Shown piece after piece: positions 1-39,254 of a DNA stretch of 64,000 bases. This stretch comes from Mayamaea pseudoterrestris (lineage: Eukaryota). The notes below the pieces were generated by a model that was given only the letters and a program-made list of their open reading frames with translations, was not told the DNA's origin and ran no database searches. Position 1 is the stretch's first letter; each line of letters opens with the position of its first letter. The position numbers and the translations under genes are program-made. Where the stretch lies: positions 1 through 64,000 of the forward strand of contig BROI01000015.1 in NCBI GenBank assembly GCA_027923505.1, in the 5' to 3' direction.

Positions 1-161
1 GTCTTGATGGTGGGAAGCAGGATGATGCTTAGTAAAGTAATCAGCAAGGTTTCCAGCTCCCTTGCTCCAATAGATTTGGAATTGCTTTTGGTCTACGCGG
101 TCGCGTAGCCAGTAGAAACGCATGTCAATAGCTTTGGAGCGTTTTTGTTTAACAGTGTCGT
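1..161 (-). mobile_element. RNase H C-terminus of copia element A, separated from the rest of pol by the 162-5436 insertion
   Basis: Minus strand reads DTVKQKRSKAIDMRFYWLRDRVDQKQFQIYWSK/GAGNLADYFTKHH (one 1-nt frameshift near 60). It continues ...TDNVTAAGIAN at 5437 in frame once the insertion and one TCGT copy are removed. Confidence 0.92.
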
Positions 162-264
162 TAGCAGGTTGCACACGAAAAACAGCAACCAGAGCGATAC
201 CTTTACTTGTCATAGTGCATGGTGCCTTGTATGCAGCATATAGTACACTAGCAGACGGAAAAGT

Positions 265-323
265 AGCAGCGTGTTTAGAGGTGATATAGCCGGTTATCCT
301 TGGTTCGATTCCGAGGTGCGCTA
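265..323 (+). ncRNA. tRNA-like element without a normal anticodon arm, copy in TRIM 5' LTR
   Basis: B box GGTTCGATTCC (302-312) in a T arm CTTGG-TTCGATT-CCGAG. Acceptor-like stem AGC(A)GCGT/GTGCGCT plus discriminator A323. D-loop-like TTAGAGG. TTTT at 325-328. Confidence 0.7.
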
Positions 324-734
324 CTTTTAACGGCATAGTGATACTACTTTCTGTTGCATACCTGCTATGGTAGCGTCCCTATCGAGAGATCTGGACTGAG
401 GCTGCTGGTTCGAGTTGCGATCGAATCAAGCGAAGAAAAAGCAAAAATTCACTGGTTGCACGGGTTTGTCACGAACGAACGATGGGGAGTCGCGGACCCT
501 GGGGAGTGCACAAAGATGCGCCGAGCCCGAAACGCCGCAGGAAAAACTGAAAAGTGACATTCCCCCGCGAGACGAAAATGCCAGCTGAAACGGAAGACGA
601 GTTAGCACTATGACGCGCAAAGCTAGGGGAGTAGCAGGTTGCACACGAAAAACAGCAACCAGAGCGATACCTTTACTTGTCATAGTGCATGGTGCCTTGT
701 ATGCAGCATATAGTACACTAGCAGACGGAAAAGT

Positions 735-793
735 AGCAGCGTGTTTAGAGGTGATATAGCCGGTTATCCTTGGTTCGATTCCGAGGTGCGCTA
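735..793 (+). ncRNA. tRNA-like element, identical copy in TRIM 3' LTR
   Basis: Identical to 265-323 at offset +470. Confidence 0.7.
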
Positions 794-837
794 CTTTTAA
801 CGGCATAGTGATACTACTTTCTGTTGCATACCTGCTA

Positions 838-3800
838 CTGTCGCATCTTTATAATTGCGCGGCAACCTTACGCCGAATTTGTAGCGTACGCCGTTTGCTT
901 TCGATTTTCGTTTCGCCGCTGTTACCATCTGTCGAAACTTCTTTCGCTTCCGAGTGTAATGCTCCAGCTGCTTCCATCCTGGCTTGTCGAGTAAGCCGTG
1001 CTTGAGTCCATACTCTGCGATCGTTATCGGATCGTCCTTCTTCATGATCGCGAGAGGCTCCCACGTCGTCGTTCCGTCAGTCCATTCGACGAGAACGTTA
1101 CTTGAACTTCCTTTGTATGTCGGATCGTTCGGTTTCAAATTAAGCTCGTGTCCGATTACCTTCGTGAATACCCACTGAGTCGCCGGATCGTTTCGTATAT
1201 CTTCGTCCATCTGTCGTTCGATTAAATCCGACAGTTCGTTGTAACTTATTAAGTCTTTCGCTGGCTCCTCTCCCATTTGGATTAGGAAACCTTTCGTCGT
1301 TTCGAGTAGCTCGTTATCGCGTACTTCGATATATTCGCATACAGTCGCTCGCATTTTCTGACCGTTTTCGTGTTCCCTTACGAACGTGCGTCCGATGAGT
1401 TCGCTTGGAGAGAACAGAGGGCATTTATTCCCTGATTCTTGCTCAGCCCTTCTGAAGAACTTCGCTGGTACGTTGGCGTGGTTCGCCATCGGAATTGTTT
1501 CGTCGTCGTTTCCTTCGTAGTTGTCGTGACTACTTTCTGTCACATGCGTGCTATGGTAGCGTCCTGTCGCGAGATCTGGAGTTTCAAAATTTCGCTCGCT
1601 TGCGCGTGTAGCTTCTTCAGAAATCTCCCCTCCAGACTCAGGGAAGGAAGGCAACTCTCGTGGTAACAAGTAGCTGCGCGAGACCACGTTGGAGCGCGGA
1701 ATCGCCTGAAGCGTGTCGTCCGTCAGAACGAGAAAAGTCATGTGCGGACCGCTATTCTCTGCGATGCCCACGAATCGGCCGTTGCCAGATCGTACCGCCG
1801 AGGGAAAGCTCCCCTGCGCCTCAAACGTGACCGGTTCCCACCACCTTGAAATGTAACAAAGGCAAATATCCGGCAGATTTCCGAACGCAACTTCCGTTGG
1901 CGTGCGCCATCCCAGCGATTTCGTCGCGAGGACGTTCAGTATCATGATTACGAATTTAATCAGCAAACCCAGCAATGGCCTGGCGAACCCGAATCTCGTT
2001 GGAGTGTTCTCCATCATTGGCTTAATGTGCGACGTGTGACGTTCGCATGGATTTTGTTCTGGATGACCCGGTTCTGTGGTCACTTGAGGAATATTGTACA
2101 TCCGACAGAGATCCCTCACAGCCTTGCCAGTCTCCGACTTGGCATTGTCGCTGAGCAGTCCGTTAGAGCGCCCACTTCGCGGATAAAATCCTCTTAACGC
2201 TGGCTTGACATTTCGCTCTCCGACTTCATCGGGTACGCGCGTGTAAAAACTTTCTCGTCCAACAAAGAGCTGCATCTTAGTAGCTCCCCATGCCCTAGAA
2301 TTCCATCATCCAAAGCTGGCGTGTCAGAGTGATGTCAGTCCGTGGCGAATAGTTCGGCAGACCGCTGAACGTTCGCGGCGGAAATCGTGATTTCGTGAGG
2401 TGTCGAATGGTAATCGCGGGTGTGCGCTGAGATGATACCATGCTTCCGTGTGACGTAAAGTCTGTTGAACGCGCTCAGTCGGGACCCATCCGGAGGTACG
2501 GCCGAAGAGCATTATAGTCCGGTTCCCTGCTTCGTAGCTTCCGCAAATTAACGCGTGAAAACTGAGCGCGCGTGTCGCACGCACCGATTGATCAGTACGT
2601 CAAGTTCGTCGCCAGTGCGTGTCGGCGTGTGACGATTGCGGTGCGTGATACCGTCATCATCGAATCGTTCGTCGAAAGATCCACAATCGTGATCTCGTTC
2701 GTCGAAATCGTCGTGCGCGTGCTCGACATCGTAAACAGTCGGGTCCCACGGCACGTCCGACGTCATGATGACAGTCGGATACTTATCCAAATCATCGAAC
2801 GTGGGTTTCGTCACGTCCACACCAGGCCATCGCCATGCAAAACGTAGCCCATTCGTTAAGTTGCGTGCGTCCGCCAAACATGGTCGTATCATGTCGGCAA
2901 TGTCCCTCACGCGCAATTGATTCGGGCAATTGAATCGTCGGTCTCGTCTCGCTTTAAAGCATACTGGTGACACAGAAGCAGAATGGTTTCGCCACTAAGG
3001 GTCTTTGCCAGTCCAGCTGCAGTGCCAATCTTGAGAGCTGGGACAATATGATCGTCAATACCAGTCACATCCACCTCGGCGTTCGTTTCCGAAACGACGA
3101 GCATGTCTCCTCCGCATAAGCCTCCGTTCGCGCCGCTGTCGATGAGCGCGCCTTCGTTGATCCGCTCGTAGTGTGCGCGATTGACGCGCATACGACGATG
3201 ACATGTTGAAGCTGAATGTACCTCGTCCGGTGTTATCAGTCGTCAACGATCCTGTCACTTGCTGAGTTGTAGTACTCGCATTGTTCGCTTGCAGAACCGA
3301 TCGTGCAGCCATTTGGACTGACATTCCACTATTGCCGGGCTGAATATTAATCGTGCCAGGAACGCTTGCGTGATCGTTCGCTACAGATTCCGTCGCGTGA
3401 CGCTCTTGATGCGCCGCGTTGACTTGCGTCTGCGTCGTAGCCGTGCCTCGTTGGTTGCGCGGTCGCCATCCGTTTTCGGGTGTCTTGGGCGCCGTCGCAC
3501 GCTTGTCCTTCAACTGCTTTCGCTGATCAAACTTCATCTCCAACCAGACTTCATCCTTCACGCTCGCGTGAGGTTTCTTCATGATCGCTGCAAATCGTTC
3601 CGCCGATAAGCCGCTTGGAGTCGCGCCGCCATTGCCGCCGCCGCCTCCTTTTCGTTCCACTAGACTGCGCTTGATTGATTGTGCGCTTAGTCTTCGTCGT
3701 CAATGGGTGTTTCTTGTCAGTATTGATGCAGCATTCTTCTAAGTGCTCGTACAACTGCGCGAAGTTGTCTTCTGAGTCGTGTTGGCCTATGTGTTTCTTG

Positions 3801-5436
3801 GGGCAATCATTCCGTCAAAACCTGCTAGTGATGCGCTGAATCCTGTGTGCTCGGAGAAAGGGTCGCGTAGCATGTCGTATCGTTGTAAACCTGTCAGAGC
3901 TTCTGCGTCCATTTCGAGCAGCCAGATGACTTTCTTGTAGAACAGTGCGAGAAATTCGATCGTCGGCCGTGACCACTTCTCGGTCAGCCGCATTCCCTGC
4001 AGTTCCGTTCGCGCGCGTTCCTTCTCGATGAGCAGTAGCGCCTTCTTCGTATCGCGTTCGCAATCGTTGGTAGACTTCGCGTCCGTCCATCGTCTTCTTG
4101 AACTGCTGTACTGCGAGTGATGCAGGACGGAGTTCGACAGTGCGTGAGAAAGATCCTGTATACAAACACATTCTTCTTTGCATACGCCTTCTGTTCTTTC
4201 GGTCCCTTTTCCTTCGGGTCATAATCGTCGTCAAAGACTTCGTGGAAGTCATGCAATGTAGCGATGACTTTCAACTCGGAAATCCACTGTTTCCACGAGG
4301 AATCCAGCTTCATTTCTTTACAATCCCTCGCCGAGAACTTGATAGACTTCGTAAATTGGTCTGAATACTTCTCGTCGTCTTCGTCGTCGCCGAGGTCCAG
4401 TATGGATCTCGGTGACTGCCGCATCTTCAAAAACACACTCGTCGGTGGCACCTTGTCGGCCGAGTCAGGCCTCGACTCGTTGCCTTCGTTCGTTAGCGTG
4501 GAGTCCGGATTCGTCCTTCTTGGATTCCGTTTCGCTTTCCTTCGCTGGAGGTTTCGCTCCGCTTCCGCTGCCCACGCTCGCAATGTTGCGCGCTTGGACT
4601 CGTTCCTTCGCTCGTGCTGTGACGAACGTCGCCAGCGTTTCGGTGGTCAGTTGCGACCATGTCTTGATGTCCGGCGACTCTTGCGCCAAATACCATTCGA
4701 TCGCGTTCGTGATCGTGCGTTGTTTCATCTTCGTTAGCGAGTGTTCGCTCGTTTCCTGCGTGACATTGTCGCCATCGTCAGTCGTCGTCGTTGTCGTCGT
4801 CGTGACGTTCCACTTCGTCGCGAAATCGTCGTACTCCATCTCGATCAGTTGCGTAAGCGATTCTACTCCGAGTTCGTCGAATAACTCCTTGAACTGAGGA
4901 TCTTGGAAAACGCCTACGTTCTCTTCGTAAACATGCGCAAACGCCGCGTCTTTCTGCGCGCGAGTTTCCGCCATCGTTGTCGTCGTGACAATGTTCTTGC
5001 TATCACCTGCGGAACTTTCCGGGCCAAGAACCAACGTGCGTCCACGTTACTTCGTAAATCAATAGTACTCTTCGTCGATAAAGTCTCTATGCCGAGGCAA
5101 TGAGTCTCAAGACAGTGTTAATCTTGTAACTTGTAAATCAAATCGTTGCACCTTTCGCTTGTAGCTGTCCTTGGATGGCCAATCCAAGCTTGCAGTTGCT
5201 ACAATACGAGAGACGAATAAATCGCTTTCTTAACTCTTCAAGCTTAGTAAGTCTGCTTGTTTCTACTCTATATCGCACTAGTTTCAGCAATATACTTGTT
5301 GAATCGCTTCGAAGCCGTCGCTGCCACGCATCACGCGATCGTGAGGCTGTGGTGAGCCGCGAGTGCCGCTGTGTCACCCTATCGGACATTCGGTGTGACT
5401 TGCCCGATTTTCGCTGTTTTCGTTCGCATCCTGCAA
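838..5436 (-). mobile_element. Copia-like element B (CoDi-like), frameshifted and 3'-truncated: 5' LTR, gag, protease, integrase; no RT, RNase H or 3' LTR
   Basis: Gag fragments from about 4973, protease ALIDSGANGGLCG (2907-3191), integrase LLSDNAKSE...TTEPGHPEQNPCER (797-2275). The ORF stops at YKFGVRLPRNYKDA where the TRIM begins. Protease-integrase order with no RT between them is copia-type. Confidence 0.88.
5190..5436 (-). repeat. Probable 5' LTR of element B (247 bp, termini TTGCAG...CTGCAA)
   Basis: 6-bp inverted termini. The outer end coincides with the break in element A pol and with the TCGT duplication. Only one copy is present, so the inner boundary is inferred. Confidence 0.7.
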
Positions 5437-8400
5437 TCGTTGGCAATGCCAGCGGCAGTGACGTTGTCAGTTTGTAGTGGTGTAGCTGGTTGAGGATGAC
5501 CCAATTCTTCTAGTAGATGACGAATGGGACAAGCTTCTTTGGCGTTGTGAAAGAGCGCACCAAGCTCCGCCTCGGCGGCACTAGAGAGGACTTCCTTCAT
5601 GATTTGACAGAGCACGTTGATGGCGCCGTTGTGGGGAGGAGGCTTGCTAGTAGGGCCAAGCGGAGACTCGGGCCAGCTGCTGAGGAAATGGAAACCACCA
5701 GCGCATGAGCGAGCCTTGGCGGCGGAGAGGTAGGAGGCATCGCTATGCTGCCACAAACACATTTCACTGGCAGTGAAGCGTACCACAGCATTGGGGTGCG
5801 AGGCGCAGTAATCGAGGACTTGGAGGACGGCGAGCATGGTTTTGTGAGTCGGGGCGGATTGTTTGGAGGCAATTTCGTTGAGCGCTTTGAGTAGTGTTGA
5901 ATCAACTGCGCGCGCGTAATAAAGAAGGACGCCCATTACTTCTTGTACTCGTGTAGCGTCAGCTTTATTGACAGTAGCAGTGTCGTCGGGCGCAGGAGCA
6001 AACTGTTGCTTGGCGCCGTAGACGGGCTTGAGCCAGGCGTGGGGCGCATGCTGGGGCTTTGTCGGCATTTGGTGTTGAAAGCGTTCGAGCGCCCGTTCAA
6101 TGTAGCCAGGCATGGAGATGTCACACGTGCCGTGCTTGTAGTCCCAGTCAATGGTGAGTCCACAGTAGCGAGCGCCAGTGAGATCCAGACTGACTTTGTA
6201 GGTGGCTTGGAGAGCAGCGAGCAAGTGATCCAGATCGGCCTTATCAGTGTATTTGATACCAAAATCGTCAACAACGAGCGAGAAGCAGATTGGTCGCGTT
6301 TCGTGCCGCCAGAAACCAGGCGTGAGCGGCGCGGGCGAGTAACCATGGGCGGCGAGGCGCTTGACGAGTAGGTCATGTGCCAGACGGCCAGCCTGCGGGA
6401 GACCGTACATGCCTTTGGAGATTTCAGTGTAGATGTAGCCGTTGTGCGCCTTGGAGTCAAGGTCGTAGAGCAAGCGGAAAGCGTCGGGAATGAGGTTGAG
6501 CGAGATGCGCATGTACTCCTTGGTGGCCATGGGCGTGTTCAGATAGAAGTCTTTGATGTCGATTGTAGCGAACCGCGCGCCAGGCGTAGAGATAACCGAG
6601 TTGAGGAGCACTTTAACGGTGGTCAAGTCGGCAGCTTTAGTAGCAGTGGCGCCAGGATAGTCGATGCGATCGCCGCCGACCGTGATGCGGACACGCCGAG
6701 GATTCTCCTTCTCGGGGCGCCAGGCGGAGACAATGCGGGCGTATGTAGCAACCTTATTGTCGGGTACGTCGCGATAGTGGATGAAACGGAGCGTATCGGT
6801 GCCTTTGATGTCGTTATAGCCTTGGCTGAGGCGCGCCAGCTCGTCAATCATGGAGGCTTCCCACTCGTTGCCTTCGCTGCACTCGAGCAGTTCGCGGATT
6901 TCAGCGACGCGACCAGTATCGGGATTGATGGCGCTGCCAAGATAGGCGAAACCAAGGCGGTTGCAAGTGGTTTCAATGTCAGTCCATTTGGCGACGCCAA
7001 GGTTGAACTCGCGAAGCGCCGTCATCGCCTTGCCTCTGGGGGTTGAGCGGACAAAGTCGGTAATGGGGCGCTGCGTCGGCTTGGTAGGAAAGATGGAGAG
7101 ACGGCTGGGACGCTTAGGATGAGGAGACAATGGGGAAGGACGTAGGAAACGGACTCGTTTAAGAGCAAGTTGTTCATTGCGGCGAGCTTGTTGGGGGGAA
7201 AGGGATGGCAACTCATCAGCGTGAGCGGAAGGCTCAGTGTGGAGCGGCGGGTCGGCGCGGGGTTTTTTGGTCTTGCGGCGGCGGCGGCGCGGTCCCGTGA
7301 CGTCATCATAGGTGACGGCAGGTGAGGTAGGCTCGTTAACGGACGGTGGCGCGGCGGGCGGGACGGCGGGCGTGGGGACTGGCGAAGGAGTTGGCGTTGG
7401 TGGCGAACTTGGTGAAGCCGCAGATGTCGTATCGGTGACACGAGTAGGTGCGCTTGCCGGAGAAGGGAGGGCCGCCGGAGAGGGGAGGGCATTGTCAGTC
7501 GGCACCCTCAGTTGTGGCGCAAACCCAGGCGGTGGAGCGACAGGCGGTGAGTTGTCCACCCTCAGAGGTGGCGCAGGGTTGGCAGCAGGTGGCTGATAGA
7601 GAGCGATGAGGTCGGCAAGAGCACGGACGCGACTGTCGGTAGTCGGTGCAAGGGCCGCTGGCGGATCGGTGGAGGCAATGGCGGTCTTGAGGTCTTCTAA
7701 GGCAGCATGAATGCGAGAGTCGGGCGTAGAGAGAGGCATTGGCAGTGCAGGAGGAGGCAGCCATGCGACTTGATGGCATGTCCGTTCGGCGTTCGTCTTC
7801 CAAATCCACACGCGATGGCCTCGATACGAGTCAAGAGCTGGACCGAGATACCAACCATCAAGGGCGCGGGGCTCAAAGGAGCCACGGTCTTCAGTAGGAA
7901 TATGAGCAAGAACACGGATGCCGATAGGGGCCAGAGGCGTGCGGTTGAGGTCGAAGAGTCCATGCACTAGCGTGTAGGCAGACAGCTTGGGATTGATGCG
8001 AGAGCCGCGGCACATATTGAGTGTGATTTCAGTCTGGGGAATGAGTTTATCCCACAAATGGAGAGGAAAAGCTTTGTCGACACTGCAAAGGATGGCAACA
8101 AAATGGTTTTCAAACGTGCCAATGGCTCGTTCCGCGAGGTTGCGGCGGTGCAATCCATGACCGACCAGCTGGAAATCTATCTTTTGGTCGTGCATGTAGT
8201 CTTTTAACAGCTGGGAGCATTCGTTATCAAGACGCTGGAGCTGGGGTTGGAGACCAGCGCGAGTGAGGCGTTTAAGAAGGGATTTGTAGGCCTCGAGAAT
8301 GCAGGTGGCGTTGCGATTTTTGAATGGTTCGAGCCAGATATAATTGCTGTCGTAATCATATAGAACCATGATGTATTGATTCCCGTTGAGCGAGGGATTA

Positions 8401-9248
8401 AACACTTTTCCAGTTTGATCAGTATAGATTTGACCAGTAGGCTTGAAAAAGGAGGCGTAGCAGTGGTGGCGCGTCGCAACGGTTCCTTCTTGGAGAGGAA
8501 AGAACACGTCGCTGTCGTCGTCGTCTGCGTCCACGTTTGTTGTTGTTGACTTGGTGGAGCGAATGCCTTGACGCAAAGCTTTCATGTGGCCTTTATGCAT
8601 GGCAATGGAGGCGGGCGGGTGCTTGCGGAGGTTGCTGGCGGTGAGGCCAGGAAAATGCGGGAGCAAGCCTTTGGAAAGGGCAGCCTCAAGGGTGCGGAGA
8701 CTGGGCGAGCCAAGGGAAGCATGATAGAACTTGAGGAGCTCAGGCAACTTGGGATCGCCAATGGTAGTAAGAGCGCTCTGGGGCAAAGGCGCAGGGAGCT
8801 CCATTTGCCAGAGGCCAGTGGCTGGACACCGAGCGCCACTCAGGACGAGCTCTTCTTTATAATGCACGAGGACTCGTTCCTTGTCAAGGGAAATGAGGCA
8901 GCCTGCATCACAAAGTGTGCCAAGGGAAAGTAGTGAGTGAGTTGATAAAGCAGGAACAATATGAGCTTTAGTGGCCGACTCGGGAAGGCCGGGGATGTTG
9001 AGCGTTGCCTCATGAGTGGAATGCATGAGGGTGCCGTTGGGAGTTTGAATTGCAAGTGGGGTTGTCGTAGCAATCTTGTTTAAGATGGGAGCGCTAACGG
9101 TGACAAAGTGGGCAGAGGCGCCACTGTCAGCTATGAGGGTAAAAGTAGGATTGGCGGGAGGACCAGTGATAGAAGATAACGAGAAACAAGTACTATAAGC
9201 ATGTGACATGGTGCTATAGGTGTTATCAATCACTGGCGTCCCTCCATC
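5437..9248 (-). CDS. Pol of copia element A (protease, integrase, RT, start of RNase H), interrupted at 5437
   Basis: IADSGASAHF protease; YTDQTG...RLDNE...NLAERAI integrase; IDIKDFYL, KGMYGLPQAG and LVVDDFG RT; HSDASY, SAAEAE and TDN RNase H motifs. Open frame begins right after the gag stop. Confidence 0.93.
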
Positions 9249-10376
9249 TCAGCTGCGAGGGTTGGCGGGATTGCGAGGACTCATCTCGGTAAGGGTGCCA
9301 CCCATGGTATTGTCAGCGGTCGCCGTGCTGACATGATTTGGACCAGGGTTTTGGCAAGTAGCGCTAGTGTGGCGGTAGTTGAGACCAAAGCCATGAGTGT
9401 GGCAATAGTGACGGGCGCGTGGTGAAGCGGTGGGCGCTGCCGCTGGCGTAGGCGTGATAGCTGGAGCAGGCGTGGTGGGTGTCGCAGGGGTGACACGAGT
9501 AGGTGCGGGCGTCACATCGCGAATGGCGGCCATTGCCTGCTGCAATTGGCGACGGAGGCGAGTTAACTCGGTGGTTTGTGCGATGTTGGCGTGATCCTGA
9601 TAGCCAGCTTGGCCAGCCGTGCGGTGCTCCAAGCGCTTGTCGTTGGCCTTGTTGAAACGGGACTGGAGATTCTCCATGGTGCGGTCCACCTCGTCGACAT
9701 CGCGGTCGTAGGCGGCGAGATCGGCGGCAAACACGCCACTGTTGTTGAGGACGAGGAGCGTGTCGTGGATCTGTTGTTCCGGGGGAATGGGCGTGCCGGC
9801 ATCTTCGGCAAAGTCGTTGATGTCGGTGATGCGACTCCAAATGCGCTCGATGGGATCGTTGGGATCCCATGGCGTGAGGAGACGAAGAACGTTGTCTTTG
9901 CGTTCCTGGTTGGAAACGCGTCCGTAGGCGGTGGTGAGATGCGTGAGGATCTGCAGCGTGGTGAGATTGGCGTAGATGGAACGACGGTTTCTGAGGACGG
10001 AATAGTAGTCTTCGTCGAGAGCAGCGAGTAGGCAAGCCTTGAGAGCAGTGTCGGCAACGAGCATGAGCTTGAAATCGTCAGATTTTTCCTTGTGAATGCG
10101 ATTGCGCTCAGTCAGTTGGTTTTGAGTAAGGCCAGCGACTTGAAGACCGAGCTCCTCGGGGCGAGCTGGGCGGTCAAAGGGAGCGTCTGGATCAGGGAAG
10201 CGTTCGAGGAGTTCGTCGTCCGTCATGCACAGAAAATCGTGGCCGTTGTCATCAGAACGGGCAGGAATCTTGCGAGCGTTGGCGCGGAGTTGAGCAGTGG
10301 CAATGGTAAGAGTAGAGTAAGTAGGCTTGCCTTCGATGATGGTCAAAGGATCGAGCGTAGGGAGCGTGATGTTCAT
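9249..10376 (-). CDS. Gag of copia element A
   Basis: Long ORF directly upstream of pol. First ATG gives MNITLP. C-terminal YCHTHG...HTSATC...H zinc-knuckle-like motif. Ends in a TGA in frame with pol. Confidence 0.85.
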   Translation of the reverse strand: MNITLPTLDPLTIIEGKPTYSTLTIATAQLRANARKIPARSDDNGHDFLCMTDDELLERFPDPDAPFDRPARPEELGLQVAGLTQNQLTERNRIHKEKSDDFKLMLVADTALKACLLAALDEDYYSVLRNRRSIYANLTTLQILTHLTTAYGRVSNQERKDNVLRLLTPWDPNDPIERIWSRITDINDFAEDAGTPIPPEQQIHDTLLVLNNSGVFAADLAAYDRDVDEVDRTMENLQSRFNKANDKRLEHRTAGQAGYQDHANIAQTTELTRLRRQLQQAMAAIRDVTPAPTRVTPATPTTPAPAITPTPAAAPTASPRARHYCHTHGFGLNYRHTSATCQNPGPNHVSTATADNTMGGTLTEMSPRNPANPRS

Positions 10377-10477
10377 CTTGGGATGGGAGGCACGGAGGAG
10401 GCGGCGGAGAAGGGTACGGAGGAGCTGGAGGATTCTGTGAGGAGCAATGGTAGCGGGTGGGTGAGATGTAACAATTC

Positions 10478-10660
10478 TGTTGAAGGGCCGCAAGGTACTA
10501 CAGCAGACACTCGAAGCAAACTAGTTCAATAACGTTGAATTGTTACATTATGAGCTGATGGCGGTAAGCGCCAGCAGACTCTTGCTAATCGAGTGGCTGA
10601 GAGCAAAGCGATGGAATGGATGGTGGACAGAATGGGATATTAATGAGTCATGGCGAGTGT
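10478..10660 (-). repeat. Probable 5' LTR (R-U5 part) of element A; outer boundary unresolved
   Basis: Ends ...CCCTTCAACA about 100 bp before the gag ATG. No matching TGTTG start is found before element C coding sequence takes over near 10690, so it is probably truncated. Confidence 0.55.
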
Positions 10661-10689
10661 CTTCTCCGCCTCGTAGCTTGCGACGCCTA

Positions 10690-13600
10690 CTGGCGCGTGA
10701 GCTGCGGCGCTGTGACCTCCTGAGAGGCGGGCCATCTGGCTCCCTTGTGGGCTCGGGAGTGGGACCGTCCGGGCTCCCTTCTTCGTTGGCCGCTGGGTCT
10801 ATTGGGTCGGGCGCGTCCGGTTGTTCTGGGACTCCTTGGGCCCCCGGTGTAGTGGACCCGGCCGGTCCGTCGGGCTCCTGGGGTTCAGCGGCTTCTTCGA
10901 ATGTGACCTGTGCCGGGGGACCGTTGAGGGTTTCGTTGCCTGGGTGCAGCGTCTCCTGTGGGGAGGCTCCCTTGTTGGCGGCCAGGAAGTGGCACTTGTC
11001 CTGCCAGTGTGAAGTTGGTAGGCAATCATTGAAGGACTTGCGCATGGTCTGAAAGCTTGGGTCAAAGTGTACGTGAAACTGTGGGGAGGCGAGGCCGGTT
11101 TCGAGTGACAGTACCAAGGCCACCGACCTGGCGTGGTGGGCTGAAGGGCCCAGGTATACCCCTACCCGCGCTCGGTCTACCCACTTGTCCTTGCTGGTCA
11201 CGTAGGTGTACACGGGGCACCCGAACGGGGAGTAGTGCTTGGGATTGAAGGAGGCAGGGGCCCCAGTGAAGGTCTCCACTGGTATGCTGTTGTCTTTGAG
11301 GCCTGGCGTGATGTTCTTGGTCTCATTGGCCAGTCTTAGCGCGTAAGGCCACAAGTTGGCATTCACCGCAGTGGGCCATCGGCGGGCGGCGTGGATCATC
11401 ATTGTTCTGGCTTGATCCTGTAGCTCCCTGATGTGTCGCTCGGCTATACCGTTCTGAAAGTGGGCATTGACGCCACAGAATGTGAGCACTTGGTTGGCTT
11501 GCGGTACGCCGTGCTTGCCAACTTGTCGGCAAACCTCCATTTCGGCTGCCGTAGTGTTGACTCCAACCGACGAGCGTACTCGACTGCCTTTAGTTTCTTC
11601 GCGGGTTTTGCAAGTGGATGAAGGAAAATCTGCTGAACTGGTCCACAAAGATAGTGGCGCACATGTAGCGGCGTTTAGTCGGTATGCCTCTCAGTTGGGC
11701 TATCAATCCTGGAGTATAGGAGACCAGTTGGTCAACCGAGACACATTCCCCAGGCCGGGTGGCCAGTACCTTGGAGTCCTCTAGCTGGGCTTGCGTAGGC
11801 TTGGTCCTCCATGGTCTCTTCGTGGCCTTGCCGTAGAGGCAGCTGGTGCACAGAGGCACTGGACACTTGGCTAATCGACTTGGGAGGATGCCCATGCGGG
11901 ACATTGCTTGTATTCACCTTGGGGACGCATGGTTGAGCTTATGGTGCCAGCGCAGGAATTCTGCCGAGGCATCTTGCGGTCTGGTGTCCTCCTCGTCCGG
12001 GCTAACCTGGTCTTGGATCGAGCCTCGTCCGGTCGGGCCGTCAAGCTGGAAATCCGTTGTCAGCGGCTGGGTGCGAGGCGGCTCGGCCGGAGTGACCGTG
12101 GGCGATGGGTGCCCGTCATCGGGCGGGGAGGATCCCATGTAGTCATTCCCCCCCCGGATGCCAGGCGGAAGACTGTGCTGGGAGGTCGTACGGGAGCACG
12201 GCCGCGGCGTAGCAGGTAGGATGCTCGTCGCTGACCGGTGGGATGGTGGCGAGAAAAGCGGAGTAGTTGGCAAAGCCGGGTGCCGAGTTGAGAATGCCCA
12301 CATTGGAGGCGGGATCCAGGGGCACCGTGCGTTGGCGTCGGCACTGATCCCAGTAGAGGACAATGCGATCCGAGTAGGTGAGTGAGTAGGTGCCATCCTT
12401 GTCCGGGTCGTGATCGTTGGCCAGTTGTGCCCAGTGCTGGGGGCTCAGGAGCCGACTGTGCGCTTTGGCGTCGTAGATCATTTTGGGGATGTCGATGGTG
12501 TAGGGGGCTCCCTCGTCGTCCTCAATGGTGTAGCGGCCATGACCCTGGGCGAGTGGGCTGCCAGGCGAGCCATGGATGCCGGTGAGGGTGTGCTGGATCG
12601 CCTTTGGTGGCGAGTAGAAGTCCGATAAGTGGCTGGTGATGCAATAAGATGCGCAATTGTCGACTCGAAGTTGGAGGGAGTCGGTATCAAAGCGGACTTT
12701 GCGTGAGGAGGAGCGGCCGGTGGGGCAGTGGGAGGCGAACGCTAGCCATGGTGACAAGCGTCCATCGGTGCGCGTGGTGGCCCATTCGACGAGTGTTGAC
12801 AGTGGTGTCCCACCGTTGTGTTGAGTAGGTGCGCGTGTCGTATCTGGAGGTGCGCGAGTGTGACTGTCCGCTGAATAGGTGAGGCGTAGTTGTGAATCTC
12901 CCTTGTTGACTGCGCTGGTAGGAGGTGAGAACGGCGTCGCCTTTGGGTTGCGATAAAGGTAGCTCTTATAGGCGTTGTACGCTCGCGCCCGTCGTATGAA
13001 GTCAACTGGGACGAAGGGAGCTTGACGTGTGTTGTAGCGCGTGGGTGTCTCCCTTTTAGGACGATGGCCGAGGTGTGCGTCGGCCGTGACGCTGATAGCC
13101 CAGCAGGCAATGTGATAGTAGCAGAGGCGACGGGCCCAAGTGCGTGACTTGCTGCGCCGAAGGTGGTAGCTGAATGGGTTGACGGACTTGCGCTTGCGTC
13201 GTTCGGCCTTGTAGGGAGGCCATGGCCATGGTAGACGGTGGAACCAGCTCAGCGCTCGGTCCCATAGTTGAAGCGGACTGGCCGAGGAAGGTTTGAAGGT
13301 GTGGCGCGAGTTGGTGCTGGCGCTCTGGTGCGGTGTAGCTGGTGAGTGGCAGATGAATCTCAGGGCGTTCAGGAGTTTACTCATCAGCCCGTAAAACATT
13401 AAGATAAAGTTCCACGGGCATCCCCATCAGCTGCTCTCGTCGCCGCTGTCCTGTTGGTAGATGGCCATTTGCGCTTGGAGCGTCGATGCTGGGGTGGCTG
13501 TGGCGGCCTCCGGTGTGGCGGCCTCGGGGGTCGCAATCTTGCCTTCCTTCTGTGCCTTGTGGCAGTCGGCCGCTGCGTGCTGGCCCCACTTGGCGTGGTG

Positions 13601-15226
13601 CGGGCACCAGGTCCAGTCCAGCTCCTTGCCCTTGGCGTTCTTGGCCTTCTTGTGGAGCTTTCCATCCGTTGGTGCGGAGTCTCCGTCCGTCCTTGACCCG
13701 GTCGGCCCTCGCGTGGCGCCTTTGCGCCGATCTCGCCTTGGCTTCCCTTTGCAGGGCTTCGTCCCTTGGTGGTCGTTCTTCTTTCGCCGTGACTCTTGGC
13801 GTTACCGATAGCGCGTCGAGTGCGGCTGCGGTAGTCATCCGTTTGCTTACGCGCGTCGCACCGTTGTCCACGGCGACGGTGGTCGCAGCAAGTTGGGTGT
13901 GGTCTGCCCCCGGTTCTGTAGATCCTGGTCAACCCTGCGCACGTGGTCGTGAAACTTCTCGATGTTGTAGTCAAAGACTTCCGCTAGCTTGGTTCCTGAG
14001 CAGTCCATGATCTCCTTGTGGAGGTTGAATATGGTGGCCTTGGAGTCGAGCACCGTCTTGGTAATGATAACCATGAGGAGGGCGATGCCCGAGGCAGTGA
14101 CCACGTCCGAAGCCATTCCTTTGAGCTTGTACTCGCTAGCCGACAGGCGGATGCGCGCCTTCATGTCTGGGTCCAGCGACTGGATAATGGTCGAAGCCAG
14201 TTGGTTGTCGGCCTGAGCTTGGCGCGTCTGGGTCCCAAGGAAGGACTTGGCGTACTCTTGGACCTTGGTCATGTTGAGCTTGCCGTACTCCGAAATGAGG
14301 TTGGCGGTAGTCAGGGTGGTCCCCTGTTCGCACTTGGTGAGCGGCACGTCGTAAACGTTCCAGTTGAACTGAGTTCCTTTGTCGTCCAGGTCGGCGAGAA
14401 ACCCTGAGAGCTCCTCCGACTTGCCAGAGTACTTCTTGTCGAGTCCCTTGGAGGATTCGATGAATACCTTCATGTTCTTGGCATCGCTAAAGTTCATTGG
14501 CTGGTTGGTCGCCAATGGCGTAAGCTGGTACGCACTGCTGCTGGGAGCGGCCACCGCTGGTGGAGCACCTTGCTGCGCGGTGGCAGCCAAGGCTTCAGCG
14601 ACTGCGGCTGCGATGGCGGCTTGGAGAGCAGCCTGGTTGGCTTCCTGGTCCTGGAGGCGACGCACTTCGGTGGCGGCGGCAGCGGCTTCGTTGGCTTGCT
14701 GCATGGCTGCAATGCGTGCAGTCATCTCGGCGATCTGGGCGGCGTGGGCGTCCATTGCTTGTTATGTTTGTTGCGGGTTGCGCAGAGGAAGCGTGTTGTT
14801 ATGGTAATTCAGTCGAGGTCAACTGAAGGGCTCGGTGGTTACTACTTGCAAGTAACTAGAAATCAAAGAAGGTTTGCTTCGTTTGGTAACTGTGAGTGTT
14901 TAGTGTTACTGCTATAATTTACTGCCTTTGCAGGCCGAGTCTCGCCGAGGTGCGGGCTTGCTTGGGCCTGCTATGTATGATAGCCAGTGAACTTGCCGTC
15001 TTGCGGGTAATTAGGGTGCTTTGGCGTTTGTAGCCATTATTAACTGGTGATTGAACAGATAGTTAGAGAGTAAGTCAGTTGGATGCTTCGCCATCCCCTT
15101 GCCAATGGCGAGGCCTGCATCGCCATGGTCAGTCTGTGGCGAGGCTGGTTTGTGTGGACCGTACCGAATCCCGCCGATCTGTCGATGTCGCATGGACATC
15201 CATCTATGTCGCATACACATCCAACA
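10690..15226 (-). mobile_element. Copia-like element C, frameshifted and truncated after integrase
   Basis: Gag 14755-13427 with WCPHHAKWGQHAAADC. Protease FDTDSLQLRVDNCASYCIT. Zinc-binding WHHKLNH...CTSC. Integrase VSVDQLVS...IFVDQFS...FQNGIAERHI. Ends near LRRSQR. Confidence 0.88.
14794..15226 (-). repeat. 5' LTR of element C (433 bp, TGTTG...CAACA)
   Basis: Canonical 5-bp inverted termini. Inner end lies 39 bp upstream of the gag ATG and is followed by a tRNA-complementary segment. Confidence 0.75.
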
Positions 15227-15299
15227 CCTCGGTGTAAGCTTGCATAATATATACAGGTGTGTACTGCCAACAGTCGTATGTGTGCATCGCCAAACAACT

Positions 15300-16150
15300 T
15301 GACACCATCATCTGTAGCTCCCAGTTTGTCTCTCAGCACCCAACTTAGCAGCTTGCCATCAAGTGTGCCATCAAGTGATCCAAGCACCAAGCCCGGTGAA
15401 TAATCTAGCGCAGGACCCAGTCTCCTTCCCGGTGCAGCATCAAGCTTGCCACCCTCTGTAGCTCCCAGTCTGTCTCTCAGCACCCAACCCAGCAGCTTGC
15501 CATCAAGTGTACCATCAAGTGATCCAAGCACCAAGCCCGGTGAATAATCTAGCGCAGGACCCAGTCTCCTTCCCGGTGCAGCATCAAGCTTGTCACCCTC
15601 TGTAGCTCCCAGTTTGTCTCTCAGCACCCAACCCAGCAGCTTGCCATCAAGTGTGCCATCAAGTGATCCAGGCACCAAGCCCACTGAATAATCTAGCGCA
15701 TGACCCAGTCTCCTTCCCAGCGCAGCATCAAGCTTGTCACCCTCTGTGGCTCCCAGTTTGTCTCCAGGCACTCAACCCGGCAGCGTGCCATCAAGTGTGC
15801 CGTCAAGTGATCCAAGTGCCAAGCCCAGTGTGTGACTCACTTAGTGCAGGGCCCAGTGTCCATCCTGCAGCAGCAATGTTGTGCCCCTCTGTGAGTTCCA
15901 GTTTGTCTCTCAGCACCCAACCCAACAGCTTGCCATCAAGTGTGCCATTCAGTGACCCAAGCGCCAAGCCCAGTGTGTCATCTAGCACAGGACCTCAACT
16001 CCTTCCCAGTGCAGCAACAAGCTTGTCCCCCACTGTGGATCCCACTTTCTTACCCAGCAGTCACCCTAGCAGCTTGCTATCAAGTGTGCCATCAATTGAT
16101 CTAAGCAGATTTTCCTCCAAACATTCACCCATGCAGCTTGCCATCAAGTC
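15300..16150 (+). repeat. Degenerate 144-bp tandem repeat (about 6 units) built from 12-bp subunits; decayed Pro/Ser-rich coding repeat
   Basis: TGTAGCTCCCAGT-type motif recurs at about 15313, 15457, 15601 and 15745. Plus strand gives PSSLPSSVPSSDPSTKP with an in-frame TAA in several units. Confidence 0.8.
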
Positions 16151-27120: not shown

Positions 27121-27475
27121 GTGGCACGTAGTATATGGAACGAGGAACTGTGTGGACAGTAGGTTTTATAACGTGGTTTGCTTTGGCCTAATTTAAGTGA
27201 GACTTGGTTACTATGAGGATGATAGTTATCGAGTATGTTTATTAGTAGAGCGATGTTAAACATAACAGAATAGTCTTTGTAGCTGTGTGCGAGTAAGCAA
27301 AGCGCAAAGCGTCCATGTAGATCATTCATTAGTGAGTCTCGGAGTGACATGACAATAACCACCATCTCGACCGCATGGGCACTGCACAATCTGCACATGG
27401 ACGCTGGCGCGAGTATAGTTCGTTAAACCCTTAAATCATTGTATCGACGCATTGTGATTATTATTCATAGATGCC

Positions 27476-29242
27476 ATGACGACAATCAAGCGACAATCAG
27501 CCTCCCGCGATGGAAGTCCGCTGCGCATGCTCGCTCTCTTTCTTGTCCTATTCATGGTTGTACTCTACCTGGCACTTCCAAGCTCGTATGAGACGGTTGC
27601 CATGGAGAAAATGTTTCACGGTCAAAATTCCACCGGAGTTATACGCCAAGGTATCCGATCCGTTGTAGCCCTTCGCCGCGAGCAGTTGAGTCATGCACTC
27701 AAACACTTGACGGACGGCGGCGTGCCGCAACGATTGCGAACGTTGCGCGACAAACATCAAGTTGTAGGCGAGCGTCTTGGCGAAGTCAAGGCGGGCAAAG
27801 AGACAGTGGAAGAGATTTTACATGGAGCCGATATGTCGCACCATTTGTCTAGCAAACCGCCCATGACACTTGATGAAATTGTCAGTTACTTGGACCGGTG
27901 GATTCATTCCCTTCATGAGATTCTTGGTGAATACAAGACTGCTACTTTTGATCAAATTTGGCAAGCCTACCATGATCTGGCTGTCAAGACTCTCTTTCCT
28001 TGGGACCAGGATTACTTGAGCCGCATGCCTCCCCGTCGCGAGGACGGTAGTGTTTTCTTGTCGCTCGCCACGTATCGAGATGAGAATTGCTTCAACACAA
28101 TTTACAACGCATACGCAAAGGCCAAGCACCCAGAGAAGCTATTCGTTGGTCTGACGCAGCAAAACTGTCACAAAGACTGCAAATCTGGTGTACTGGCGAA
28201 CCTCAGTATGGTGATAGTTCCTCCAGACGATGACTGCTACGCCAAATTTTGCGAAACCGCGCTGGGGAAACCAATTTGCGTAAATAAGCAGGTCCGAGTA
28301 TTAAACATTGACGAGCCCGAGAGTCTAGGTCCGTATGCGGCGCGTTATTTTACTAGCAAAATGTGGTATGGCGAGGAATGGTTCATGCAAACGGATGCGC
28401 ATATGACATTTGCGACAGACTGGGATGCTATTTCTATCGAAATGCTTAAGAAGGCACCGTCGGATAAACCCGTCTTGAGCCACTATCCTCCTTCGCACCT
28501 CATTGATCTAGATAAACGAAAAACTACGGCAGCGAGTCGTCTCTGTGGCCCTGTCTTTGCGACTTCAGATCTCGAATCGCAAATCATTCGTCTCGAAGGC
28601 GCTGGCAATTTTGACAAGAAAAAGCTTCCTCAACCAGGCTTTGCGCCTTTTACTGCCGCTGGCTACTTCGTGGCTCATAGCCGATTCCTCTCTGAGGTTC
28701 CATTTGATCCCTTTCTTCCTTGGATTTTCATGGGCGAAGAAATTATCATGTCGTCTCGTTTGTGGACGGCAGGGTACGACATTTTCAGTCCGACGATGTC
28801 TGTTGTCGGGCACATGTATGTGCGACGCCACAAGCCCAAATTCTGGGAATCGGTGCACAGAGCATTTACCTTTGGAGGTAAACAATTTACTTGTTGTGAA
28901 TCAGGCGATTAAATTCAATATCTCACGCTGCACCATTCTCGTTTAGTCCACAACCCGCTTCAAAGCCTGGTTTTGGATCGCGTCAAGTACCAGCTGGGCT
29001 ATCCAGAGGCAGCAAAAGACTTTTTGAGGTATAAAAGTGTATTGACCGCGGTGGAAAAGTACTCGATGGGGACGGCTCGGCCATTGGCGGACTATTTGCA
29101 CATAGTGGGTCTCAACATGACGACTAAAGAAGTCGACGGAAACATGCGGTGGTGCGAAACTGGAGTGCCTCCGCCGGGCTTTGAACAATACAATCATTTG
29201 TACCCTGCTGCGAGCCTTGAGCGGGAAAGTATTATACAGTGA
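27476..29242 (+). CDS. GT60/Gnt1-like N-acetylglucosaminyltransferase, type II membrane, 2 exons (intron 28878-28946)
   Basis: N-terminal TM helix; VFLSLATYRD, GPYAARY, QTDAHMTF, LSHYPP and PFDPFLPWIFMGEE motifs. The intron joins exon 2 in frame. Confidence 0.85.
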
Positions 29243-34938: not shown

Positions 34939-35028
34939 TATGGCGTGCGTCGTCAATTGCTGCGACTAATTGTATCTGTAAGAAGGCTCGTTCTGTCTCG
35001 AGGCAACGTAATGCAGGCAGCAGCAGCA

Positions 35029-35392
35029 GTGAGCAACACGCTGGGATGCATGCGCTGATTTGGATCGCGCGCAGCGATGGATGGTCATTCGAGCTGGAAG
35101 GGGGTGTTCACCCCCACCGATCGCCGTGGGCCTTTGGTAGCTATCAATTGCAAGCCAGAGCATATAGCTGTGCAATAGTCCCGTAGCACATTAGACTTCC
35201 ATACCAGCAAAGCATGCAGTGAAACATTGCGACAACAGTCAGTAATAGTATTTACAATATTTATTACAATCACCCTACTCGCCATTGTGCCATGCCCCGC
35301 ATCCATGTGAGAAAAAAAGATGAGCATTTTACAACTACGATTCATCAACGTTCCTAATCCAAATGCCGACGCTTTTCTGTCCCTCCTCGTTG
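35029..35392. repeat. 364-bp duplicate of 44352-44715 (last codons of UTP20 plus downstream DNA)
   Basis: Colinear at offset 9323 with about 7 substitutions counted by eye. Confidence 0.95.
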
Positions 35393-36112
35393 AGCCGATC
35401 GTCGATGGATGCTGGACTGGCATGCCAGCGGTTGCAATGATCTTGGACGACAAGCCTTGGGACAACACAAGGTGATTTTCTGATACCACGAGCTCGCGGG
35501 AACATATACCATTGAAGCTGTGGCACCGGAGTTTGATCGTCTTTGCAAAAAGACGACGGCAGTATCGAGCAGTACTGCCAGTCCGAGGATTGCCGCTGTA
35601 ACAATTGCAGATCGCTTGGGATTGCTGCGCATCTTTCGCCTGAAATTGATCCGAAGGCTCTTGGCGATGGATACTCGCGGTGTAGACGGTTCCGTAGACT
35701 CCCTCAAAATCGTCATCGTCAAAAGCAGGTTGACATTCAAGCGATTTCTGATATCCAACCAAGTCTGCGATGCGGATGCATCGGCATTGTCATTGGACAC
35801 CAGATTTTTACCTGATGATGGGCTTTGGTGACCTTTTTACCTTTTTCTTGGCCGTCGGTATCAAAGCGGCGCGATTGTCCGCTTCTTTCTTTGCCCCTGG
35901 GGTATCGAATTCGACGTTTGTTGTGGCAGTGCACGTTTGGACATGTCTTTCAATACTGGCGGCCTTGCCGCCCCTCTCTTTGCTCCGTTTCTCCCTTGTC
36001 TAATCATCACTGGTATCTGGCTCAGTTTCGGCTTTTTGACGCCTGAGCAGACAGTTTTTTCAGGACCTTTTCCTTCTCGTCCTGGGGATGTCACTACCGG
36101 CTCGTCGTTCAT
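35393..36112 (-). pseudogene. Frameshifted 5' fragment of a membrane-anchored protein, possibly PhoX/DUF839-like, cut off at the duplication junction
   Basis: Overlapping short ORFs in different frames, a TM segment AIVTAAILGLAVLLDTAVVFL, then LVLSQGLSSKIIATAGMPV. The PhoX resemblance is from memory and weak. Confidence 0.35.
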
Positions 36113-37039
36113 CGTCGTCGTCGTCGCTGGGAGATGCTCTCTTCGTCACTCATTTCGGACTGCTGCATGTATCTACAAGCATTCACGCATTTTCTCTCCT
36201 GGTTTTCGAAACAGTGAGGGGAGAAAAAAGCCGCCACCCTTGGTCGAGTTGGCCGCTCCGTGATGGATTTGGCGATCACGATTCATATCAGCGGTGCGAC
36301 ATCAGTCGTGGTTTTATACCGCTCTGCGCACCTTCGACATCTCATCATCAACATTGCAGCCATCCTCAGCTGCGGTGCTTCGTGTAGCTACAGTAGGGCG
36401 GCGGTTTATGGTGTACAAAGTTTCAAATGGCGACGCAGCGATGCCCAATAAAGTGTTTAGGTTTGAGTTCAAACTTCAGTGTGGCTTAGGCTGCATCCAT
36501 GATTCAACGCGGCAAGCTGCTGGCTGCTTTGACCTACTCAGTGGTAGATGCCTTGATTTTGCCATTTTCGATTAAGCTCACGATACTCTTTTGAGAGACT
36601 TTTATCAGAACATGTGTTTTGCAAAGAGCTTTTTGTCGCCATGCTAGACGCGTTCGTGTCTCGTTGGCCGTGTGACAGGTGCTCGCTGAAAATTTGTGGC
36701 CAAAGCGGAAGGAGTGCGGTCATGGTGTCATGGCCGCGAACCGAGCCCATCGCTCATTTCCAACTCGCTGCACGTATGGCAGTTTTGTCGACCATTCCGG
36801 GATTAGGAAACGTTTCGTCTTCCGAGTCATTTGTATTGAATCAGGACGGAACGAAATTACTCTCATTGCAGCACTAATCTGCGTCGAACGAGCTGGGCAA
36901 TCGCGCAGCTCATCCTTCGCACGGATCAAGTATTTCCAGACAATACAATGGTGGACACCAATCAGACTCGTCACGGTCGAAGTGCCGCCATGATGATTGT
37001 AACTGTGGCGTCGGTGGGATTGCTTGTGCCATTACCATG

Positions 37040-38052: not shown

Positions 38053-38287
38053 GCGCAGCCGTAGTGGTGGCAGGAAAAGAAAGTTTACATGGATGCTTGA
38101 AACAACATTTTGCGTGAGCAGTAAAAATCAATAAGATAAATAAATTTAATTGTGTATGGTTCGGTGCTTAAGCAAGACTACGAGTAGACTGACAGTTCCA
38201 GTTGCAAATAGAGGTTCACATGTGTTTCCTCGAAAGAAAGTATACTCAAGACCACATCCACCACCAGCAGCATTCTACCGGTAGCCT

Positions 38288-39238: not shown

Positions 39239-39254
39239 GTGACAATGTCATGGG

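Follow-up and report, generated by a model that had tools for sequence, protein, structure and literature searches.

A probable Helenus-type miniature LTR retrotransposon with a decayed tRNA-like sequence in each LTR in the diatom Mayamaea pseudoterrestris

[quoted passage not shown] Those with tRNA-derived sequence in the LTR are known as Helenus ('TRIMp3'; Kojima 2024, PMC10886601), and those with a 5S rRNA fragment, reported from two nemerteans, are known as Ajax (PMC10886601). The current work concerns positions 162-837 of a 64,000-nucleotide stretch of Mayamaea pseudoterrestris DNA (assembly GCA_027923505.1, contig BROI01000015.1, positions 1 to 64,000 of the forward strand), which is called the window below. 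This 676-bp sequence, the mini element, is probably a non-autonomous Helenus-type TRIM, each LTR of which contains a decayed class-II-like tRNA-derived sequence. The original prediction, made from the letters of the DNA, had described a small LTR element that encodes no protein and has a piece derived from a tRNA in each of its LTRs, and this core is supported by the present analysis. It had also taken Ajax for the tRNA-bearing type; in PMC10886601 the tRNA type is Helenus, and Ajax carries 5S rRNA.

The sections of PMC10886601 used here give Helenus a length of 311-1263 bp, with a primer-binding site (PBS) as well as a polypurine tract (PPT). Fungal Helenus elements are tied there to Copia helpers and target-site duplications (TSDs) of 5 bp, and animal ones to Gypsy helpers and 4-bp TSDs. 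Their tRNA-like part, with a box A of TRGCY...YGG and a box B of GGTTC, is thought to act as an RNA polymerase III (Pol III) promoter, a function that the paper itself describes as not validated experimentally. The insertion of a short interspersed nuclear element (SINE) into an LTR is proposed as the origin of such elements, and several independent origins are proposed. In the same sections, tandem arrays are reported for Helenus and for the 5S rRNA-bearing Cassandra elements, and no complementarity is reported between the Helenus PBS and its own tRNA-like part. The hosts in Table 1 of that paper are fungi, animals and Selaginella; no diatom or other stramenopile appears in it.

The mini element consists of two 206-bp LTRs and an internal part of 264 bp. 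The LTRs (162-367 and 632-837) agree at 206 of 206 positions (100%), as had been predicted, and the recent movement proposed on this basis fits such identity. The PBS-like TGGTAGCGTCCC at 368 and the purine-rich AAAGCTAGGGGAG ending at 631 abut their respective LTRs, which bears out the predicted PBS and PPT. With up to one mismatch, the PBS 12-mer occurs in the 64-kb window only at 368 and 1554, against an expectation of 0.13; its 8-mer occurs five times against 1.28 expected, and only the sites at 368 and 1554 are related to the mini element. The U5 end reads GCTA, and the box after the PBS reads TGGTAGCGTCC.T.TCG.GAGATCTGGA. No gag or pol coding capacity was found within 162-837. The sole sizeable reading frame is an antisense ATG open reading frame (ORF) of 126 aa (426-806), of which the 140-aa stop-to-stop form has no Pfam match; the predicted lack of any ORF is thus correct for gag and pol and incorrect for this antisense frame. 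Short direct repeats, a short internal part (below about 1-1.5 kb), the placement of the PBS and PPT and the absence of gag and pol are among the features by which TRIMs are recognized, and these are found here. Of two further ones, a flanking TSD and dispersed copies, there are candidate traces: the displaced TGTCG repeat (Table 1), and one other upstream flank plus two diverged LTR fragments in public contigs.

With a lowered threshold, ARAGORN places an 83-nt cloverleaf with a long variable arm in each LTR (Table 1). The two units appear at 98% of the default threshold and not at 99%. At 95% they are the only matches in the window, and at 90% one further match is added (37145-37239, minus strand). 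Sixty first-order Markov sequences of 64 kb each (3.84 Mb) served as a random control and yielded 0 matches at 100%, 1 at 97%, 6 at 95% and 57 at 90%. Because these counts are so low, a match of such quality inside a given 206-bp LTR is very unlikely to arise by chance. The box B sequence GGTTCGATTCC occurs twice in 64 kb, both times in the LTRs, where 0.13 occurrences are expected. Box A, TAGCAGACGG, fits TRGC-NN-A-N-GG and can be read as TAGCA..CGG. It lies 7 nt past the start of the acceptor stem and 53 nt ahead of box B, the spacing expected of a tRNA with a long variable arm. Compared with the Helenus boxes, box A shows one departure (A for Y after TRGC) and box B is GGTTCGATTCC. The tRNA-derived LTR sequence that characterizes Helenus is recognized through ARAGORN at 98%, and its recognition is weakened by the lack of an Rfam tRNA match.

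The tRNA mimic had originally been delimited as a 59-nt module with a canonical T arm and box B. This 59-nt string occurs twice in the window, once in each LTR, with no occurrence expected by chance, and its T arm and box B are perfect; its limits, however, are probably better replaced by the 83-nt parse. Because the ARAGORN register places the cloverleaf at 242-324, several predicted parts take on another identity. The supposed bulged acceptor stem combines the D stem's 3' strand with position 26 and the anticodon stem's 5' strand; the D-loop-like AGAGG falls in the anticodon loop; and ATAG-CCGG-TTAT, taken for a mini-hairpin in place of the anticodon arm, is the variable arm. The label "anticodon-less" is not retained, as the cloverleaf at 98% of the threshold has a decayed anticodon arm as well as a long variable arm. 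On this model, the unit is probably better read as a decayed full-length class-II-like cloverleaf than as an anticodon-less mimic.

Each unit is followed after two bases by TTTT, as had been observed earlier (325-328 and 795-798), and a 39-nt tail extends from the first of these to the end of the 5' LTR. They are the only runs of four or more T on the plus strand of the mini element, in which nine runs of four or more A are found. The window as a whole has 3.4 such T-runs per kb, from which about 1.6 would be predicted for 329-794. The scarcity of internal T-runs was considered as support for Pol III transcription and was rejected, since 52% of shuffles also have none. The data file of PMC10886601 provides a comparison: by eye, all six Puccinia graminis Helenus LTR consensi checked in it have TTTT within about 15 nt of the box-B arm, followed by a short tail. 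Because all six carry TTTT just past the tRNA-like part, the T-run is not distinctive, and the earlier argument that it indicates a discrete small RNA instead of a Pol III promoter does not discriminate between the two. Several fungal Helenus internal parts in the same file start with TGGTAGCG or TGGTAGCA and finish in a G-rich tract. Four strings from the mini element have 0 occurrences in this file, which gives no sign of common descent with the Helenus families described there. Since the paper proposes independent origins, missing shared sequence does not bar the use of Helenus as a structural class name.

A life cycle can be proposed by analogy with Helenus and Cassandra, in which boxes A and B would recruit Pol III and transcripts would begin near 242 of the 5' LTR. 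For most of them the TTTT at 325-328 would be the end, yielding an RNA of about 85 nt; some, passing this weak T4, would end only at 795-798 and form a template of about 557 nt. The terminal redundancy (R) of such a template would be the tRNA-like segment, with 162-241 as U3 and 329-367 as U5. Reverse transcription would be primed at the PBS by a host tRNA with the 3' end ...GGGACGCUACCA; judging from A1:U72 and TGGTAGCG, this is presumably the initiator tRNA. A Copia-type reverse transcriptase (RT) and integrase would then copy the mini element in trans. A Copia helper is suggested because the PBS, beginning with TGGTAGCG, is of the kind seen in Copia-linked fungal Helenus in the data file, and because the pol elements examined in the window are all Copia.

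It is very improbable that the LTR-borne unit also acts as its own primer, either as a trimmed product bearing CCA or by a Tf1-like fold-back within one RNA. In the former case, the product of about 85 nt, trimmed after A323 and supplied with CCA, would end in ...GGUGCGCUACCA and would pair with the PBS TGGTAGCGTCCC at 11 of 12 positions, namely 8 contiguous Watson-Crick pairs, one G-U, one mismatch and two G-C pairs. The PBS complement minus its last two bases (GGGACGCTAC) agrees with GGTGCGCTAC (315-324) at 8 of 10 bases, the best match in the LTR. A match of 8/10 is found somewhere in 5.9% of shuffled LTRs; the coincidence lies in its position, and it was noticed post hoc. If true, a non-autonomous element would here carry the primer for its own reverse transcription, a situation that Kojima looked for in Helenus and, in the sections used here, found absent (PMC10886601).

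A number of observations weigh against assigning the mini element to the Helenus type and transcription by Pol III. At its default threshold ARAGORN is silent on the element and calls zero tRNAs. Rfam gives no tRNA match at the gathering score, nor at E<=10 on 801 bases or on 97 bases. The cloverleaf has 22 standard pairs of 25, six of them G-U, together with three mismatches and an 8-nt anticodon loop, and its energy is +1.8 kcal/mol as compared with -17.2 kcal/mol for the minimum free energy (MFE) fold of the same 83 nt. Box A departs from the Helenus TRGCY in its last letter, and the LTR termini are TA...TA, without the usual TG...CA. No T-run of four or more occurs in 329-794, yet this is not significant because 52% of shuffles show the same. 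Immediately outside the LTRs the 5-mers are not alike (GTCGT at 157-161, CTGTC at 838-842), leaving no clean TSD; the flanks belong to two different Copia families; and no autonomous partner was obtained in the helper search within the window.

Because the pairing is so decayed (+1.8 kcal/mol), tRNA ancestry is argued from the register of the motifs and not from a strong model score. The unstable cloverleaf, the 8-nt loop, the three mismatched pairs and the lack of a default ARAGORN or Rfam match are not those of a functional tRNA gene. By these models, the tRNA-like piece is a relic that no longer encodes a working tRNA. The other Rfam matches, sno_ncR3, mir-728 and RMST_1, were rejected as chance (E 0.17-1.9, far under the gathering scores), and 5S rRNA, the mark of Cassandra and Ajax, has no Rfam match in the mini element.

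Such decay raises the alternative that the mini element is an ordinary TRIM with RNA polymerase II (Pol II) transcription, in which the tRNA-like piece, a fragment of a tRNA gene or a tRNA-derived SINE, is a decaying passenger with no role in transcription. This is unlikely in our estimation, even though the cloverleaf energy of +1.8 kcal/mol, the lack of an Rfam tRNA match and the imperfect box A are what it would lead one to expect. A SINE-into-LTR origin is proposed in the sections of PMC10886601 used here, and the 27 putative TRIM or LARD (large retrotransposon derivative) entries annotated in Phaeodactylum have no stated tRNA content. Against it stand a box B of perfect consensus, a box A in the right register and at the right spacing, and a sole T4 run per LTR placed 2 nt past the unit, a layout also seen in the checked Helenus consensi.

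The predicted extension of the stem raises another alternative. AAAAGTAGC (259-267) is complementary to GCTACTTTT (320-328), and the pairing extends to AAAAGTAGC(A)GCG (259-271) with TGCGCTACTTTT (317-328), at -21.7 kcal/mol for 256-332. The MFE fold contains this 12-bp stem with one bulge, which encloses the T arm. The pairing is therefore real, but its stability is no better than that of dinucleotide shuffles: the MFE of 250-345 is -23.3 kcal/mol against a shuffle mean of -23.08 (z = -0.08; 83 of 200 shuffles equally good), and the fold of 242-400 has z = -1.0. Fold stability was for this reason rejected as support for the extended stem. It is quite improbable that the main product is a discrete functional tRNA-mimic RNA of about 60-85 nt per LTR, ended at TTTT or cut by RNase P/Z in the manner of mascRNA. 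The TTTT 2 nt after the discriminator, the intact T arm and the 12-bp stem around it would suit such an RNA, and a short RNA reaching the first TTTT is also the expected by-product of the Pol III model. Against it stand the fold, no steadier than shuffles, and the unfavourable cloverleaf that RNase P/Z recognition would need. Furthermore, the T-run is common to the checked Helenus LTRs, which are read as promoters in the sections of PMC10886601 used here, and T4 is lost (T>A at 325 and 327) in one diverged copy.

Evidence on copies came from Logan contigs of four coded runs (X1, X3, X4 and X5). No listed contig spans 161/162 or 837/838, and parts of 1-160 and 641-840 are uncovered in some runs; this describes the coverage and is not a finding. 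A 500-nt contig in X1 covers 349-837 and continues with TGGTAGCGTCC, equivalent 500-nt contigs are present in X3 and X4, and an X5 contig contains the joint 631->162. In all four runs, the LTR and the internal part close into a 470-nt cycle, 837 leading back into the PBS. Self-closing contigs are expected of identical LTRs with unretained flanks, and tandem arrays fit them too. In X3, a 68-nt contig joins 161-191 to other upstream sequence at the LTR start. Two low-depth contigs of X1 contain LTR pieces that have diverged and lie next to other flanks; one spans 221-260 and shows 4 differences, the other spans 242-368 and shows 14. Six of the nine differences listed for the latter are of the G>A or C>T type. 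With G307A the T loop still has a purine at this place, and C312T leaves a G-U pair; the acceptor pair with C248 is lost through G316A, and T325A and T327A abolish T4. No match to the LTR pattern was found in metagenome, viral and genome contig collections (0), nor to the U5-PBS pattern in the metagenome contig collection (0).

That there is no mobile element here, only a local 470-bp stretch duplicated in tandem (1.44 units) or a join made through the repeat during assembly, deserves hardly any credence. The 470-nt cycle in four runs and the flanks from unrelated Copia families would agree with it. The exact placement of the PBS and purine tract at the edges of the repeats, the inverted termini, the other upstream flank joined exactly at the LTR start in X3 and the diverged LTR fragments elsewhere in X1 speak for an element, and reports of tandem arrays exist for Helenus and Cassandra themselves in the sections of PMC10886601 used here.

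A-tract variation was also observed in the internal part. In X5, the A-rich stretch at 426-447 is replaced or bordered by long A runs, with loose ends at 436 and 447; these sequences suggest that the length of the A tract varies between copies or strains.

The left flank, read from 159 to 1, encodes DTVKQKRSKAIDMRFYWLRDRV...NLADYFTK. It matches the pol C-terminus of the other Copia element of the window, P0003 (tblastn E = 3.8e-5), and has no match to P0124, a 1602-aa Copia-type polyprotein of Mayamaea pseudoterrestris; it represents a different Copia family. The right flank is a copy of the P0124 family and is cut off just before the RT domain, because only residues 1-1057 of P0124 could be placed by tblastn. 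Its minus-strand ORF P0001 (838-2305) is 92% identical to P0124 residues 576-1057, in fully identical blocks. P0001 shows no significant similarity to the two other Copia polyproteins of the window. Between 842 and 2491 (minus strand), the window copy differs from P0124 in three short blocks, where identity is lost and then regained; these look like paired frameshifts or differences between gene models.

The two flanks meet the mini element in a manner that allows three explanations. Contigs of the intact right-hand Copia family agree with the window at all 360 nt of 841-1200 (0 differences) in each of the four runs. To the left of position 841 they run on as ...GAGAGCTT, encoding KALDEINGNT as in P0124, and relatives of the left flank that have diverged follow the window as far as 159 and read ATTGGCG... 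from there. The mini element may have entered an existing ...CAG-TGTCG-CATC... Copia junction and acquired a TSD of 5 bp plus an extra base at either end; this needs no substitutions and does need an insertion exactly at the junction of two Copia fragments. Alternatively, two copies of the mini element, one in each Copia element, may have recombined, in which case the TGTCG repeat would be fortuitous, with a substitution at position 840 of a flank that is otherwise identical. As a third possibility, the assembly may have been joined through the repeat.

Table 1. Coordinates of the mini element, its tRNA-like units and the adjoining features in the window
Feature	Position	Strand	Description
5' LTR	162..367	+	206 bp; termini TAGCAGGT...ACCTGCTA, an 8-bp inverted repeat
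3' LTR	632..837	+	206 bp, identical to 5' LTR
PBS-like TGGTAGCGTCCC	368..379	+	first base adjoins 5' LTR end
Internal region without gag/pol	380..618	+	between PBS and purine tract
Purine-rich tract AAAGCTAGGGGAG	619..631	+	11/13 purines, adjoins 3' LTR, polypurine-like
tRNA-derived relic, 83-nt cloverleaf with long variable arm	242..324	+	ARAGORN at 98% of default threshold
tRNA-derived relic, 3' LTR copy	712..794	+	ARAGORN at 98% of default threshold
Acceptor stem	AGTACAC 242-248 / GTGCGCT 316-322	+	6/7 pairs
tRNA positions 8-9	TA, after acceptor 5' strand	+	ARAGORN cloverleaf
D arm	251-267	+	ARAGORN cloverleaf
Anticodon arm	268-285; stem 268-272 / 281-285	+	8-nt loop GTTTAGAG
Variable arm ATAG-CCGG-TTAT	286-297	+	4-bp stem
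T arm CTTGG-TTCGATT-CCGAG	299-315	+	perfect
Discriminator A323	323	+	ARAGORN cloverleaf
Box A-like TAGCAGACGG	249..258, copy 719-728	+	begins at tRNA position 8
Box B / T loop GGTTCGATTCC	302..312, copy 772-782	+	perfect consensus
TTTT, candidate Pol III terminator and R/U5 border	325..328, copy 795-798	+	two bases after each unit
Left flank, Copia-type pol C-terminal end (...SKAIDMRFYWLRDRV...NLADYFTK...)	1..159	-	runs off window
Right flank, Copia copy, residues 1-1057 of 1602-aa polyprotein	842..3993	-	tblastn of P0124, 3993-842
TGTCG, left copy of possible 5-bp TSD	156..160	.	T161 between repeat and LTR
TGTCG, right copy of possible 5-bp TSD	839..843	.	C838 between repeat and LTR
53-nt patch, 87% identical to U5 end, PBS and next 16 nt of mini element	1529..1580	+	antisense inside flanking Copia pol ORF

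A 53-nt patch in the right flank resembles the junction between the U5 end and the PBS of the mini element, and its segment 1529-1553 also ends in ...GCTA ahead of its PBS (1554). It was considered as the 5' LTR end and PBS of a plus-strand partner and was rejected, as it lies inside a 502-aa minus-strand pol ORF. Because the peptide that it encodes, ETPDLATGRYHSTHVTESS, is also present in the 1602-aa P0124, the patch belongs to the P0124 family and is not a local insertion.

Every examined pol-bearing LTR element in the window, both flanks included, is of the Copia type. One of them is a 9.7-kb element on the minus strand (35024-44715) with 369-bp LTRs that are 97.8% identical, for which no placement of the LTR ends and PBS was obtained; its 1595-aa Copia-type ORF (RVT_2) occupies 39395-44182, and about 4 kb separate the ORF stop from the 3' LTR. 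A third Copia-type ORF of 1289 aa (5379-9248, minus strand) gives weak RVT_2 and SH3_retrovirus matches, and its end (...TDNVTAAGIAND...) resembles the sequence upstream of 159 in relatives of the left flank. The sections used here of the genome paper of Mayamaea pseudoterrestris describe its repeats as mainly Ty1-Copia.

The host is a raphid pennate diatom. The diatom setting of the element agrees with a glycosyltransferase gene at 27458-28912, of which the named relatives are all from diatoms and include Phaeodactylum (66%), Cylindrotheca, Nitzschia, Epithemia, Seminavis, Cyclotella and Thalassiosira. Elsewhere in the window, a tandem array with a period of 169-170 bp occupies 60249-64000; it has at least 17 units, 60-100% identical to the reference unit, and runs off the right end. 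A short array with a 144-bp period and about 5 units lies at 15289-16119. The region 6001-14000 has a raised G+C of 0.55-0.61 and a strong positive GC skew (+0.19 to +0.28), unlike the remaining window.

Structurally, the mini element is a member of a class described in 2024 and is new for diatoms; no tRNA-bearing TRIM in diatoms was found in the literature covered, which lies outside subscription journals. If confirmed genome-wide, it would be the first tRNA-carrying TRIM of the Helenus/TRIMp3 type in a stramenopile. It would then add an independent origin to a class of fungi, animals and one lycophyte, and would support the repeated capture of Pol III promoters by LTR elements. In compact diatom genomes, such LTRs can seed false or borderline tRNA predictions, as well as dispersed binding sites for Pol III and TFIIIC. 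The mini element and the checked Helenus consensi share the puzzle of how a full-length template can be reconciled with a T4 run directly behind the promoter unit, and the present host is culturable and has a genome of about 30 Mb.

Several known systems share single features with the mini element. The tRNA-derived SINEs (SINE2) are non-autonomous retroelements with a decayed tRNA head, in which boxes A and B form an internal Pol III promoter. A decayed tRNA with both boxes is likewise seen here; SINEs, however, lack LTRs, a PBS and a PPT and depend for their copying on the machinery of long interspersed nuclear elements (LINEs). The mascRNA is a stable cloverleaf embedded in a longer transcript and recognized by RNase P/Z. 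The mini element resembles it in having a small tRNA-like fold within a longer transcript and differs in its unfavourable cloverleaf (+1.8 kcal/mol). Tf1 is primed by the first 11 nt of its own transcript, which match the PBS perfectly. Here too the PBS has a complement within the RNA of the element itself, but the match comprises 6 genomic bases (8 with CCA) and lies at the 3' end of the tRNA-like unit.

Among TRIMs, Cassandra has LTRs with a promoter and a terminator derived from a Pol III gene, transcription from the unit of the 5' LTR to that of the 3' LTR, and known tandem arrays (the sections used here of PMC10886601 and PMC7215508). Its unit is a 5S rRNA with a type 1 promoter and is described from plants only, whereas that of the mini element is a tRNA with a type 2 promoter. 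Ajax is also a TRIM with an LTR segment derived from a small RNA; its segment is a 5S rRNA fragment, and its hosts are two nemerteans. Helenus, as far as the sections and data file of PMC10886601 used here describe it, remains the closest. The mini element differs from it in its diatom host, in its LTR ends of TA...TA instead of TG...CA, in a more decayed unit of the long-variable-arm type, in the lack of a clean TSD in this copy, and in a PBS complement that resembles the 3' end of its own tRNA-like unit (8/10 bases). The likeness extends to a short LTR pair with a PBS and a PPT, no coding capacity and a total of 676 bp, inside the 311-1263 bp range; to a unit bearing boxes A and B toward the LTR's 3' part, with TTTT and a short tail behind it; to a PBS beginning with TGGTAGCG, as in several fungal families; and to Copia elements as the likely helpers.

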